The position numbers are program-made. This document shows, one piece after another, positions 3,001-18,000 of a stretch of 25,023 nucleotides of DNA. How positions within the stretch are numbered: the stretch's first letter is position 1; each line of letters starts with the position of its first letter. The stretch is from Kofleriaceae bacterium (lineage in GTDB: Bacteria > Myxococcota_A > Polyangia > Haliangiales > Haliangiaceae), in contig JBKJLC010000286.1 in assembly GCA_046597055.1 (NCBI GenBank), positions 1-25,023 of the forward strand, written 5' to 3'.

Positions 3001-6000
3001 CGCTGCGCACCGCCGAGCGGTCCTTGTCGAAGATCTCCTCGGACTGGCTGACCCGGCGCAGATCCATCTGGGCGGTGACCACCACGGCGACCCGGCCCGG
3101 GCCCACCACGCGCTCGAGCATCGTGCGCACCCGGGTCGCGATCGAGCGCTCGACGTCGGCGCCCTCCGCGCCGGGTCGAACCGAGTCGGCCGACAGGACG
3201 TCGCCGTGCTGGTCGACGATGACCACGCCACTGACGTTGAGGCCATCGACCGACGCTGCCACCAGCTGCTTGATGCCGAGCACCTGCTCACCGGTGAGCC
3301 GCTGGCCGGCCCGCACGCGCAGCGCGACCGACGCCGACGGCGGCTCGTCGGCATCCTTGAACACCGACCGTTTGCCCAGGGCGATGTGGACGCGGGCGCC
3401 CTCGACCGGCGCCAGCGCCGTGATGCTGCGCGACAGCTCGCCCTGCAGCGCGCGGCGATACTTGACCTGCTCCGCGAAGCTGGTCTGCCCGAGCGATGCG
3501 CCCTCGAACAGCTCGAAGCCGACGCCGCCGCGGGGCAGGCCGGCGCCGGTCGCGGCCACCCGGGCCTCGGCGAGGCGCTCGGTCGGGACCTCGACCGACT
3601 GGCCGCCCTCCGGGATCCGGGTCGCGATGCCGCGGCTCTCGAGCAGCGCGGCGAGCTCGCTGGTGTCCTCGGGCGACATCCGCTGAGCGACCGGCTTCCA
3701 GCCCGACTCGGGGGTGCGCAGCGACGTCCATGCCACCGCGCCCAGGATCACCACGACGATCGCGATGGCGCCCACGCGCGCGCCCTTGGGCAGCCGGCCC
3801 CAGAGGGCCTGGGCCTGGCCGGTCATGGCGGCGGCAGCGCCGGTCGAGGGTTGGTTGGAGTCAGCCACGAGGGTTCAGGAGGTCGCGATCAGACCGCGGT
3901 GTTCATCAGCTCGCGGTAGGACTCGAGCAGCTTGTTCTTGAGCGTGGTCGCGTAGCGGACCGAGACGCTGGCCTTCTCGGATGCGATCATGACCTCGTGG
4001 ATGCCGATCGAGGGGTCCCCGGCGGCGAAGCCGCTGGACGCCTCGACCGCCTTGCGCTCCTCGGTGCGAGCCTGGCCGATCGCGTCGGTGAGCACCTGCG
4101 CGAAGTCGCCGCCGGCCGCGACCTTGCCGGCCGGCGCGGCGCGCTCGAACTTCGGGAGCTCGACCGCGCCAATCGCGGGCGTGCCGGTGGAGCTGATCAT
4201 CGGCCGATCCCGAGCGCGCGCTCTGCCATCGAGACGGCGGTGGACAGCGCGGTGACGCCCGCTTCGTACGCGCGCGATGCGGTGATCATGTCGACCATCT
4301 CCTCGACCGGGTTGATGTTCGGATACGCGACATAGCCACGGGCGTCGGCGTCGGGATGCCCCGGATCGTGCTCGAGCCGCGGCGGCAGGTTGTCCTGGGT
4401 GATCTGGCGGACGGCGACGCCGCTCACGCCGGCGCTGGCGCCGGGCACCGGGACCGACTCGAGCACGACGTCCTTGCGCTTGTACGCGCCGCCGCCATCG
4501 GCCCGCGTGGTCGACGCGTTGGCCAGGTTCGACGCGGCCACGTTCATGCGGGTGCGCTCGACCGACAGGCCGGATGCGCTCACTTCCATCGAGGTGAAGA
4601 AGTCCATGGGGGGCTCCGATCAGGGGTTGCCGTCGCCAGCCGCGTAGCGCAGCAGCGCGAGTCGTCGTGACACCAGCTCCGCCGAGGCGTTGTAGCGGAC
4701 GCGGTTGGCGTCGATCTTGGCCAGCTCGCGCTCGAGCGCGACGGCGTTGCCGTCGGGACCCACCAGCTGGCCGCCGTCGTCGATCACCTGCCCGTGACCG
4801 GGGGTGCCACTGGCGGTGAGGTGGCGCGGATCGGTGCGGGCCAGGGTGCCCGCCTCGGCGCCGACCACGCGCTGGAGGTCGGCCGGCCGGTAGCCAGGGG
4901 TGTCCTGGTTGGCCACGTTTCCCGCCAGCACGGTGTGGCGTTCGCGATGGAACGACATCGCCCCACCGAGCTGATTGATGCCGTCGTAGATGCCGCTCAC
5001 GTCGGCCCTGATGTGCAGGTCGCATGCCGCTCGCGGGCGGCATGCAAGTCGGCGCCACGGTTAAGCTTCGTCCAAGCCGCCGCCGGCACCGTCGGCGAGG
5101 TTGACGCTGCGCCGATGGCGGGGCTCATCGCGGGTCCTGGGTGAACGGCCACGGGAACCATTCGTGGCGTAGCGGCGGTGCGCTGACCCCATCGACGGAG
5201 GCGTCGACCGGCGCGTCGACGGAGGCGTCGATCGGCCCGTCGACCGGTGCCGCGTCGGTGCCGGCGTCGGCCGCGCCAGCATCGGGCTCGCCCGCGTCAG
5301 CACTCCCCGCATCGACGGGCTCGGCCGCGTCAGGAGCTCCCGCGTCAGCCGTGCCCGCATCACCGGGGTCGGCGTCGTCGGCGGCATCGGCCACGCCGGC
5401 GTCCGCCTCGCCCGCGTCGGCCGCGTCGGCGTCCCCCGCGCCCGCGTCGCCGTCATCGCCGGCATCCTGATCGTCGTCGGGGCCCTCGCCGGGTCGCGTA
5501 CACACGCCGCTCGACGCACAGGTCTCACCCATCTCGCAGTCGCTGTGGCGCACGCACAGCGGCTCGCCGCACGCGGCCGTGATCGCGATCAGCGCGACCG
5601 CGGCCGCGGCGACAACCGCGCGCAGGTGACGGCCCGGACGATCAGAACGCATCGACCACCATCCCGAGGCCGAACAGCCCCTGCACCGAGGCCGCGTCGT
5701 CGGGCAGATCCGTGCCCGCCACGAAGACGTCGATCGTCAGGTCGGCGCACATGCGCAGGCCGTCCATGGCCGCGCACACACCCCCTCCGAACGAAGGACC
5801 GTAGAGCGTGTAGGGCTGGGCGATCGCCTTGACGCCGCCGTGCAACCGCGCGTGCCGGCCGGGGGTGAGCATCAGCCCGGCTTCGAGGCCGGCGCCGGTT
5901 CGATCCAGCGTCTCGATCACCAGGCCGGCGTAGGCGGCCGTGCGCGGCTCGTCGCGGATCGCCCACGCGCCCAGCGCCGACAGCGTCAGCGGGCTTGGCC

Positions 6001-15000: not shown

Positions 15001-18000
15001 CGCCGTCGGCGAGGACGACCGAGCGCTCGATGAGGTGGTTGAGCTCGCGGACGTTGCCGACCCACGGGTGATCGAGGAGCGCTGCCCGCGCCGACGCGGT
15101 GAGCGAGATCGTGCGCGCGTCGCGGGTGGCGCGGCGGATCGCGGCCTCGGCGAGCAAGATGATGTCGGCACCGCGGGCGCGCAGGGCCGGCAGCTCGAGC
15201 GGGACCACCGCGAGCCGGAAGTAGAGATCGGCCCGGAACAGCCCGCGCGCGACCATGTCGTCGAGGTTGCGGTGGGTGGCCGCGACGATGCGGACGTCGA
15301 CCGGGACCTCGTTGTCGGCGCCGACCGGACACACCGTGCGCTGCTCGAGGACGCGCAGCAGCTTGGCCTGGGCCGCCAGCGGCAGGTCGCCGATCTCGTC
15401 GAGGAAGATGGTGCCGCCATGTGCGGCCAGGAAGCGGCCGGCGCGCTGGCTCGAGGCGCCGGTGAACGAGCCCTTGAGGTGCCCGAACAGCTCGCTCTCG
15501 ATGAGCGACTCCGGAATGGCGGCGCAGTTGACGGCCACGAACGCCCTGCCCTCGCGCGCGGATCCCTGATGAATGGCGCGGGCGAAAAGCTCCTTGCCAG
15601 TGCCGGTCTCACCACTGAGCAGCACGCTGGCCTCGCACGGCGCCACGCGGCGGATCACCTCGAGGGCACGTCGGAGTGCGGGTGACTCTCCGAGGATTTC
15701 GGCGGCGCAACGAGTTCTCCAGCTTGCGAAATCGATGTCGGCCACTGCCCAGGCCGAATGCGAGAGTCAAGCCAACTTGAATAGCGGGAGTGCATCCGTC
15801 AATACGGTTTTATCCTCAGCAGAAGAGCGTGTTTGACGTCATCAGCGTCCCCGCTACCCGCAAGAACCGGGTGCGGTCCTACCCGGGGGGGGGTAAAGGG
15901 CAACTCTGCGATGTCGCTCCAGATCGAGCGCACGGTCGGTGCACGTGGCGAGATACGCGACCCCGGTTCAGGAAGCTCACACCGGCGGATCAGCCGAGGC
16001 GGAGGTCGGACCCAGGAGATCTTCGCGGTAGTGAAGGGCCTGACACGAGGTCTCGCCCCAGCCCTCGGCGGGCTCGGACGCCGCGCTGCCGCGGGCGAAA
16101 TAGAGCACCGTTACGATCGTGCCGTCGTCGAGCTGCACCGTCGATGGATAGCCCACGTCGTTGCCGATACCGTCGCCGGCCAGGATCACCTCGTGATCGC
16201 GGTTCCAGGTCGCGCCGCGGTCGTCGCTGACCAGCGCCCCGCAGCCGAGGGGCCGCCGCCGTCGGCCGAAGGTGAGCAGCAGGCGACCGCTCGCCAGCCA
16301 GCACAGATCGGCGGGGTGCTCGAGTGCGCGTGTCACCGGTGTCGGCGGGCTCCAGCTGTCGCCGCCATCCCGGCTGTGGACGATCGCGGTATGACCGTCC
16401 GCGTGGCGGACCGCGCCGACCAGGTGGTCGGGAGCGACCCAGCATAGCGACAGCTCGCTGGTGTTGTCCGCGACCAGCGACTCGTCGCCCCACGTCAGCC
16501 CGCCATCGCGACTGCGGATCACGATCGAGTCGAACCGCGTGCCTGCCGGGCCGGCCTGGGCCGGGCCATAGGCCGCCATCAGCAGCGTGCCGTCCGGCCC
16601 GGTGACGATGCGTCCGAACGGCGAGCCCCAGGCGAGGCGCTGGCTGCGATGGGGCCGCGGCGGCGACCAGCTGCGGCCGTGGTCGGTGCTCGTCATCACG
16701 AACAGCTCCGGCTGGTCGGTCAGCGGCGCCTGCGCGGGCGACTGCCAGCGTCGCTCGTCGCCCGACGGCAGTGGCGGATAGCAGCGCACACCGGCTTGCC
16801 AGTAGGCCAGTAGCCACCCGCCATGGGCGTCGACCCCGAACGCGGGATTGCGCACGTCGTGCCAGCGCGGCGCCACCTCGATCGGATCCGACCAGCTCTC
16901 GCCGCCATCGGTCGAGTGGGACGTGGCCAGGGTGCCGGACAGGCCGTAGTGCGGCGCGCCGGTCCGGAACACCGCGGCGATCGCGCGGCCGCCGGTGCGC
17001 GCGATCACCGGAAAGTGGCCCTGCATCGCGCACACCAGGAATCGGCTGATCGTGTGACGCCGTCCCACGAACACATCCCCACGCTGCGACCACTTGGGCA
17101 CCCGTCCGAGTACCACCCGGGTTCGGCGCCGATCAAGGCCGGCTCGGCTTGTCCTACCTGGCCCCGCGCGCTCCCATGATGGGATGACCACCGTGGCGAT
17201 CATCCAGGCGCGCATGGGCAGCACCCGGCTCCCCGGCAAGGTGCTCGAGAGGTTCGCCGGCAAGACCGCGCTCGATCACTGCGTCGAGCGGACCCGCCGC
17301 TGCCCGCGGCTGGACGAGGTCGTGATCGCGACCACCCCGGCGCCGGCCGACGACGCCATCGTCGCGGTCTGTCGCGAGCGCGGCTGGCGGCACGTCCGCG
17401 GCTCCGAGCTAGATGTGCTCGATCGCTATTACCAGGCGGCGCGCGCGACCGCCGCTGATCACGTGGTGCGCATCACCAGCGACTGCCCGCTGATCGATCC
17501 CTCGGTGCTGACCGGGTTGTTCGACGCCTATCGCGCCGACCCCGAGGTCGACTACGCCAGCACGGTGTGGCCGCATCCGACCTTCCCCAACGGCATCACC
17601 GCCGAGGTGGTCCGGTTCGGCGCGCTCGAGCAGGCCTGGCGCGAGGATCACGACCCGGCGTGGCGCGAGCACGTCACCCCCTACCTCTACCGCCATCCTG
17701 ACCGGTTCCGCCTGCGCGGTTACCCGGCTGACGCCGACTGCTCGCACCACCGCTGGACCCTCGACACGCCCGAGGATGCGGCGCTCCTTCGCAAGATCTT
17801 CGATCACTTCGCCGACAATCTGTTCGGCTGGCGCGAGGTGCTGGCGCTGGTCGAGCAGCATCCCGAGTGGCAGGCCCTCAACGCCAGCATCGTGCAGAAG
17901 CGGGTGCCCCCGGCCGGTCAGGCGGTGTAGAGCTGGTCGGCCCGATCGGCGTACTCCTTCAGCTGCGAGGCGACATACAGGATCAGCTGCGGCGTCAGCC

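Follow-up and report, generated by a model that had tools for sequence, protein, structure and literature searches.

Sigma54-type promoter sequences abutting SD-less start codons suggest leaderless transcripts in an uncultured myxobacterium

The window, a stretch of 25,023 nt of contig JBKJLC010000286.1 from a Kofleriaceae bacterium, raises the question of whether sigma54 polymerase can produce mRNAs that begin at, or almost at, their own start codon. The original prediction was that flgB, fliL and an activator gene each carry a sigma54 promoter exactly 14 nt before a start codon lacking a Shine-Dalgarno (SD) sequence. All three motifs, the 14-nt gap (N14, counted from the conserved GC to the start codon) and the SD-less starts are present on the minus strand exactly as described (Table 1), the longest match to the SD consensus being 2–3 nt within the 20 nt scanned upstream of each start. 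A search of the assembly found no 16S 3' end, so the anti-SD is only assumed. The gene names also hold: the top NCBIfam matches, all with scores under the curated cut-offs, are FlgB, FliL and an AAA+ activator of sigma54. The GTG of flgB aligns with the starts of its orthologues, and residues W9, R10, A14, G19 and S21 of the activator are invariant in 9/9 aligned proteins, which makes a start further downstream impossible; the entry in the public protein collection (P0001), with 310 aa, is 33 aa short and loses these residues. The sigma54 site of the activator gene is a weak match taken alone, and the case for it rests on conservation, with TGG-N10-GC at N13–15 in 11/11 same-genus orthologues and in a paralogue on G000:C156.

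Table 1. Sigma54-type sites and genes of the window (scores refer to the matrix described in the text)
Feature	Position	Strand	Description
flgB sigma54 -24/-12 site	5029-5015	minus	then 14 nt, GTG 5000; matrix score 14.4
fliL sigma54 -24/-12 site	13828-13814	minus	then 14 nt, ATG 13799; matrix score 19.1
Activator-gene sigma54 -24/-12 site	15774-15760	minus	TGGC..TCGC variant; then 14 nt, GTG 15745; matrix score 3.8
Fourth sigma54-type site	6167-6153	minus	then 13 nt, GTG 6139; matrix score 18.1
Activator gene	14714..15745	minus	343-aa sigma54 enhancer-binding protein, AAA+ and HTH, without N-terminal sensor domain
Stand-alone receiver-domain protein	14286..14696	minus	Pfam PF00072; directly behind activator gene
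fliL	13287..13799	minus	NCBIfam; first gene of probable unit
Genes 3' of fliL	6179..13242	minus	pseI, acetyltransferase-like ORF, Pse methylase, PseD/Maf-like, MinD/FlhG-like, motA (8075-7221), motB
165-aa protein	5642..6139	minus	matches no Pfam family; signal-peptide-like N-terminus starts at N13 GTG
flgB	4620..5000	minus	first gene of flgB-flgC-fliE-fliF-fliG-fliH
flgC, fliE, fliF, fliG, fliH	538..4607	minus	downstream genes of flgB unit

Judging by the spacing between genes, fliL, pseI, the flagellin-glycosylation genes, the MinD/FlhG-like ATPase gene, motA and motB form one probable unit, and the sensor-less enhancer-binding protein is likely to be the flagellar activator. The fourth sigma54-type site is overlapped by a perfect 22-bp palindrome (6164-6143, read off the sequence), and GTG is the start codon in three of the four window genes with such a near site. 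The GUG at which flgB and the activator gene begin counts against reading them as leaderless, given that AUG is found at all 171 leaderless transcription start sites (TSS) of S. meliloti and that the leaderless cases of C. jejuni are also AUG.

Across the genome, a plausible start, picked without upstream information, lies at N13 or N14 of 81/903 GG-N8-TTGC[AT] sites (N13 53, N14 28), compared with 4/653 for mis-spaced GG-N7 (Fisher p 2e-15) and 13/695 for GG-N9 (p 3e-10). These counts exceed what chance would give, as had been argued from the three window genes; the identity of the spacing at 14 is not general. The sharp peak expected genome-wide is present, at N13 instead of N14, the histogram for correctly spaced sites running 13:53, 14:28, 15:7, 16:14, 17:8. 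With a genomic mode of 13, orthologues that range from 12 to 17 and a fourth window site at N13, "exactly 14 nt" is not a rule, and its occurrence at three window genes is thus a coincidence. Genes were called with no more than a simple hexamer model; strict GGCAC-N5-TTGCW sites, taken with no gene calls at all, have ATG or GTG at N13–14 in 21/41 cases and a total of 4 such codons over N6–11.

A matrix trained on the N13/14 sites reads YGGCACG-N4-TTGCW with a strict 10-nt spacing from GG to GC, and mis-spaced versions of the motif give no peak or a far smaller one. Owing to this training the count of 176 genes that it selects is partly circular, whereas the regex counts (81/903, 21/41) are free of circularity. 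The selected genes are operon heads: a same-strand neighbour stands 30 nt or less upstream of only 2% of them, compared with 39% for the 1830 other confident genes. The median upstream gap is 156 nt among the 95/176 with a gap of <600 nt, which leaves room for activator sites. An SD is found at 8/176 (4.5%, against a background of 4.9% and 29% of other genes), C stands at -1 in 73/83 of the N13 genes and 41/47 of the N14 genes, against 60%, and the start codons are 81% ATG and 18% GTG. By a crude rule, a signal-peptide-like N-terminus begins at the called start in 77/176 (44%) versus 265/1830 (p 1.5e-18). Helically phased A/T peaks at -43, -32 and -21 lie outside the matrix; the IHF consensus is not enriched upstream among 175 sites, and the genome has four IHF/HU-family genes. 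The flagellar operon heads identified among the 176 genes are only flgB, fliL and fliM (3/176), the activator gene falling under the cut. What had been proposed as a flagellar regulon is therefore no flagellar peculiarity, for the layout spans genome and lineage: about 100–175 operon heads of this genome are predicted to carry it, only a handful of them flagellar, and relatives without a FlgB match to the query also show the peak (G021 30/76, G029 5/19).

The presence of motifs matching the sigma54 consensus 13–14 nt before SD-less starts makes a transcript start at the start codon likely. We consider it probable that sigma54 polymerase starts these transcripts at the AUG/GUG or within ~4 nt of it, and that they are translated as leaderless mRNAs, defined as having <=5 nt from TSS to start codon in the passage quoted in PMC12754779. 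Sigma54 promoters with leaders of an estimated ~0–3 nt, as the original prediction had it, remain the best reading, supported by the sharp peak with its mode at N13. At strong intergenic sites, 60/189 have no ATG or GTG at N12–17, and in these 60 a C-A step occurs into position 14 (17) and position 15 (12), with 0–9 at the other 14 positions. The same step at the same offsets in promoters with no nearby start suggests that the N13/N14 starts are likely zero-leader. The genome also has a sigma70-type leaderless class, with TAnnnT ending 6 nt before 132/1860 confident starts (mode N6), and this parallel peak makes it likely that the ribosomes here handle leaderless mRNAs.

Opening of sigma54 promoters by an enhancer-binding ATPase is established, as is, in other systems, the binding of ribosomes to the 5'-terminal codon of leaderless mRNAs. 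The genome encodes one intact RpoN (497 aa, with RpoN box) and 43 genes with the activator loop motif, one of which would supply the ATPase that opens a given promoter; at the flagellar operons this would probably be the sensor-less activator of the window. Transcription would then begin at the C/purine step 13–14 nt after the conserved GC, to which the C-A step of the promoters with no nearby start points. If this purine is also the first base of AUG/GUG, no leader would be left, and N16–17 genes would have ~3 nt; the ribosome would bind the 5'-terminal codon without SD pairing. Within the flagellar cascade the scheme would apply to the early sigma54 operon heads, namely the activator gene, fliL, flgB and fliM, with flagellin apart. 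Sigma54 targets are not all leaderless: besides the 60 strong sites with no nearby start, flhF and flagellin are SD-led, and flagellin has a sigma28-like promoter before its SD leader.

Among relatives, the flgB site is found at N13–17 in 22/29 and the fliM layout is kept in 21/23; fliL has N14–17 in 12/28, and others have longer leaders, often with an SD. The spacer sequence has diverged at flgB, fliM, fliL and the activator gene while the layout is conserved, and some relatives retain the promoter yet add a 20–30 nt leader, often with an SD. Strict sites have a start at N13–14 in 462/1748 cases (26%) across the class, whose genomes are not independent samples, compared with 66/1293 (5%) for a reversed-pattern control and 44/766 (5.7%) in 35 named non-myxobacterial genomes. 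Going by these sequences, the layout likely extends to many relatives of this uncultured myxobacterium and includes most of their strong sigma54 promoter sequences.

The mRNAs could instead be leadered and SD-less, coming from upstream sigma70 or read-through promoters, with the sigma54 sites silent, repressive or acting as roadblocks. The sigma54 holoenzyme binds but opens only if activated, as far as the available extracts describe it, and 1062/1830 confident starts (58%) have neither SD nor TAnnnT box, which means that leadered mRNAs may be translated without an SD in this organism. For repression, however, a site would not have to keep its distance from the start codon to the nucleotide, whereas the observed peak is sharp-edged at N13; the initiator-like step keeps its offsets in leadered promoters, and relatives with a lengthened leader often gain an SD, which leaves this explanation improbable. 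Somewhat less unlikely, though still doubtful, is a dual use at some genes, fliL foremost, in which a leaderless sigma54 transcript is accompanied by a longer read-through mRNA that yields much of the protein via an SD inside the melted region of the promoter. A GAGG/GGAG word stands 3–7 nt before the ATG in 6/13 fliL loci at N14–17, where SD-led translation of a read-through mRNA may therefore be important, and fliL of the window sits ~160 nt behind a same-strand upstream gene; on the other hand this fliL has no such word, near-type loci of fliM (0/22) and flgB (3/23) rarely do, and the SD rate of the matrix-selected genes equals background.

Recognition of the motif by a protein other than sigma54, either an alternative sigma factor of the sigma70 family or a transcription factor, with the mRNAs still leaderless, is very improbable. 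The motif is tied to RpoN by sequence similarity only, and the fourth site, lying within the palindrome, could be an operator or terminator, but the learned matrix with its strict spacing matches the consensus quoted in the available part of PMC2725144, where Geobacter flgB and fliL are RpoN targets, and the genome holds both RpoN and the 43 activator-motif genes. We give hardly any credence to an artefact of codon periodicity or wrong starts, in which the N13 GGC, in frame with the ATG, might encode an N-terminal extension. Small bumps do occur at in-frame offsets 4, 16, 31 and 34, and the top-scoring start of the caller is often not the N13/14 one; this candidate was nonetheless rejected, as the in-frame offsets N7, N10 and N19 occur just twice each, N13 53 times and N14, out of frame, 28 times. 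The peak also remains when gene calls are dispensed with, and homology fixes where flgB, fliM, fliL and the activator gene begin.

The leaderless sigma54 reading has partial counterparts in known systems. In the available portion of PMC2725144, Geobacter sulfurreducens likewise has sigma54 sites of the same -24/-12 consensus at the head of the flgB operon (a prediction) and of the fliL operon (by primer extension), with fliA also under sigma54; according to the figure legend, the 5' end and the start codon there are separated by an RBS, whereas here the codon lies at the expected TSS with no RBS. The sigma70-type leaderless genes of GeneMarkS-2 group C (PMC6028130), C. jejuni (PMC3847290) and B. 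japonicum (PMC4842269) share the lack of an SD and a promoter box that stands close to the first start codon of the operon at constant spacing, but theirs is a -10 box ~6–10 nt from the start, in contrast to an activator-dependent promoter at 13–14 nt; the available parts of these papers describe no -24/-12 leaderless class, and the word "sigma" is absent from those of the GeneMarkS-2 text. The PexR (PMC12754779) and NmpR (PMC11841059) regulons of Myxococcus xanthus, as far as these papers are accessible, resemble the present case in having enhancer-dependent sigma54 promoters in myxobacteria. The former suggests that pexR may itself be a leaderless mRNA, from a sigmaA-type promoter as opposed to sigma54, and the accessible NmpR text does not contain the word "leaderless". 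In S. meliloti (Table S10 of PMC3616915), the five TGGCACG promoters backed by a TSS start 13, 13, 12, 12 and 10 nt beyond the GC, and in two rows a leaderless TSS accompanies an RpoN prediction. Unlike here, both of these (SMa1828, SMc_ORF_18) are weak predictions without the GG, and leaders of 51–159 nt follow the four consensus promoters that serve protein genes. A literature search found no paper on sigma54 leaderless regulons, nor was a precedent for the layout found in the available parts of bioRxiv 10.1101/086108, PMC9045368, PMC5243855 and PMC12316311.

The layout is likely a novel joining of two known mechanisms, sigma54 promoters and leaderless mRNA. To our knowledge, bacterial leaderless mRNAs have been described and modelled as sigma70-family products, and leaders have been ascribed to sigma54 targets. 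A lineage with about two thirds of its strong sigma54 sites abutting a start codon would, if the reading is true, extend both rules and provide a large natural set for GUG leaderless initiation and for leader gain and loss at a fixed promoter. The -24/-12 box would then locate start codons with single-base precision in uncultured myxobacteria, which are abundant. Such starts escape gene callers, as with the shortened activator, and signal peptides are also at risk. A broader and more tentative possibility is that sigma54 in the class Polyangia serves as a leaderless channel largely for proteins that are exported or belong to the envelope, such as lipoproteins, secreted proteins and early parts of the flagellum. 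The SD-less transcripts, starting with AUG/GUG, of ~2% of genes would then be gated only by enhancer ATPases and the capacity for leaderless translation, outside 5'-UTR control, and in the course of lineage divergence individual operons would change from one state to the other, leaderless or SD-led, with the promoter kept.

A conserved leader peptide before flhF was considered and rejected, as the 38-codon ORF at N13 (G000:C73) overlaps the flhF start and has no counterpart in 23 relatives; in these, flhF mostly lies directly behind its upstream gene.

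All three minus-strand motifs of the original prediction, upstream of flgB, fliL and a sigma54 activator gene, stand in the window exactly as written there, each with a 14-nt spacer between the GC of GG-N10-GC and the start codon, and the three starts indeed lack a clear Shine-Dalgarno (SD) sequence, the longest match being ≤3 nt. The sites lie at operon heads on contig C123, the window, of a draft genome (8.38 Mb, 94% complete, 7.6% contamination) that contains RpoN and 43 activator-motif genes and carries its remaining flagellar genes on contigs C73 and C203. They belong to a real, lineage-wide promoter architecture that very probably yields leaderless sigma54 transcripts; this layout joins two known mechanisms and is no new kind of system. 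Scored with a matrix of the -24/-12 site learned from this genome, flgB and fliL have strong sites and the activator gene a weak one. A fourth site overlaps a perfect palindrome, which allows a rival reading for that site, as the palindrome could be an operator or a terminator.

Features of the window and of two other loci of the same genome
Feature	Position	Strand	Remarks
flgB site	5029-5015	-	N14; matrix score 14.4
Palindrome, 22 bp	6143-6164		15 nt past the motB stop
Fourth sigma54 site	6167-6153	-	N13; the GTG opens an ORF with a signal-peptide-like N terminus
fliL site	13828-13814	-	N14; matrix score 19.1
87-aa ORF	13960-14223	-	FlgM-like by eye; no match in Pfam or NCBIfam
Receiver protein gene	14286-14696	-	stand-alone; next to the activator
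Activator gene	14714-15745	-	343 aa
Activator site	15774-15760	-	N14; matrix score 3.8
GlnE-like adenylyltransferase and branched-chain aminotransferase genes	20477-24531	+	by eye; unrelated to the sigma54 finding
Activator, receiver protein, fliL and flagellin-glycosylation genes, MinD/FlhG-like ATPase, motAB, flgB-flgC-fliE-fliF-fliG-fliH		-	flagellar gene content of the window
38-codon ORF before flhF	C73 (L199:10389-10505)		at N13 of a strong sigma54 site; stop overlaps the flhF ATG
Second activator cassette	C156:3446-11164		genes named by eye

Genome-wide, plausible starts were counted downstream of motif matches using 6355 gene calls from a hexamer model that takes no upstream signal. 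The 903 GG-N8-TTGC[AT] sites have 2, 4, 53, 28, 7, 14, 8 and 2 starts at N11 to N18, respectively, whereas mis-spaced controls have 4/653 and 13/695 at N13-14 (p 2e-15 and 3e-10). The sharp peak expected at N14 therefore exists, but its largest count falls at N13 (53 versus 28). No rise is seen at N7, N10 and N19, which are in frame as well, and codon periodicity is thereby excluded as the source. When gene calls are not used, 21 of 41 strict sites have ATG or GTG at N13-14. The matrix picks 176 genes with a site at N12-17, a count that is partly circular since the matrix was trained on N13/14 sites, and the non-circular excess from the regular-expression counts is ~95, so that we give the range as 100-175 genes.

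Compared with 1830 other confident starts, the 176 matrix-selected genes are seldom ≤30 nt from an upstream gene (2% versus 39%), have an SD word at background level (4.5% versus 29%; shifted-window background 4.9%), favor ATG (81% versus 62%) and, by crude rules, more often encode a signal-peptide-like N terminus (44% versus 14%) or a lipobox (24% versus 6%). Several 50-62 aa ORFs under N13-16 sites on contigs C65, C88 and C190 share the pattern L-x-L-x-x-E/T-T-L-R-x-L and by eye look like peptide-precursor leaders; one adjoins a peptidase-type transporter gene. Contigs C246 and C276 carry a near-identical site with a 35-aa leaderless ORF, possibly on a mobile element.

ATG or GTG lies at N12-17 of 129 of the 189 strong intergenic sites. 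Among the other 60, several of which run directly on into an SD, a C-A step enters position 14 at 17 sites and position 15 at 12, with 0-9 elsewhere. A C stands right before the start codon in 73/83 N13 and 41/47 N14 genes, and at position 13 in 15/20 N16 genes. For the five TSS-backed TGGCACG promoters of S. meliloti, our own subtraction from Table S10 (PMC3616915) gives GC-to-TSS distances of 13, 13, 12, 12 and 10 nt. The pattern suggests RpoN-dependent transcription and leaderless translation of these genes, in which the leader would be 0 nt for N13/14 genes (at most ~2 nt were the spacing 12) and ~3 nt for N16/17 genes. A/T content is also phased at -43, -32 and -21, positions beyond the matrix, as would be expected of working promoters.

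In relatives, homology decided the starts before any site was scored. The top-scoring site falls within N12-17 in 22/29 flgB loci (one doubtful match is among the 29, and two of these 22 loci combine a weak site with an SD), in 21/23 fliM loci, the remaining two fliM sitting directly after fliL, and in 12/28 fliL loci, a 13th being missed through a wrong start pick. Strong sites farther upstream occur at 11 fliL loci, six with an SD, and at two flgB loci, both with an SD. Counting against the leaderless reading are a GAGG-type word in 6/13 near-type fliL loci, an SD-led flhF in 22/24 loci, and flagellin, which by eye has a sigma28-like promoter and an SD. No counterpart of the 38-codon ORF before flhF was seen in 23 relatives. 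Upstream of the activator, TGG-N10-GC is found at N13-15 in 11/11 same-genus orthologues and also in a paralogue, the spacers diverging in sequence. In five orthologues of other families, the N terminus is extended or the leader differs.

The close spacing recurs across the lineage, in counts that are descriptive rather than statistical tests because kin genomes are not independent. Strict sites with ATG or GTG at N13-14 number 93/226 (41%) in the same family, 462/1748 (26%) in 58 genomes of the class (reversed-pattern control 66/1293, 5%) and 734/6733 (11%) in 242 genomes of the phylum's other classes (7-23% in the six families tallied). A wider sample of 50 genomes was picked from an all-genome scan (at least 120 loci), so that each has one or more N8-22 matches by design; the counts are 58/298 in six named myxobacteria, 105/335 in eight labelled Deltaproteobacteria and 44/766 (control 35/529) in 35 others. 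An "uncultured cyanobacterium" record (L151, G101), whose label may be loose, has 5/31 and was kept out of these groups.

In Geobacter, flgB and fliL are under sigma54 control (PMC2725144). No description of a sigma54-driven leaderless regulon was found in the texts searched, mostly non-subscription papers; figures and bioRxiv supplements may hold single precedents. The nearest are myxobacterial pexR, which is suggested to be leaderless but from a sigmaA-type promoter (PMC12754779), and two weak RpoN predictions in S. meliloti that lie at leaderless TSSs but have no GG (PMC3616915). The present genome also has a sigma70-type leaderless peak, which coexists with ordinary SD genes: the distances 5 to 9 from the TAnnnT end to 1860 confident starts count 27, 132, 53, 49 and 42 (background ~5). 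About 15% of the confident starts are of this type; among the 130 with the most frequent spacing, N6, GTG (75) exceeds ATG (54).

Opening of sigma54 promoters depends on an activator, as established elsewhere (PMC7057263). The activator of the window is without a sensor domain, has the loop GSFTGA instead of GAFTGA, and with the adjacent receiver protein is possibly a split or constitutive activator; it would be a flagellar master regulator with its own sigma54-dependent promoter. Among the at least 120 homologues listed, the labelled ones are Kofleriaceae (3), Deltaproteobacteria (3) and Myxococcales (1), so the source is likely a myxobacterium of the class Polyangia. Orthologues in other families (L071-L074, L076) have a longer N terminus and adjoin flgB. 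A Pfam-positive FlgM is present on C73. The C156 cassette holds a paralogue of the activator (77% identical, with an N14 promoter as in the window), a receiver protein, a small FlgM-like ORF, and FliA-like and FlhG-like genes, with no structural flagellar genes seen in that interval; the FlhG-like gene has its own sigma54 site at N13.
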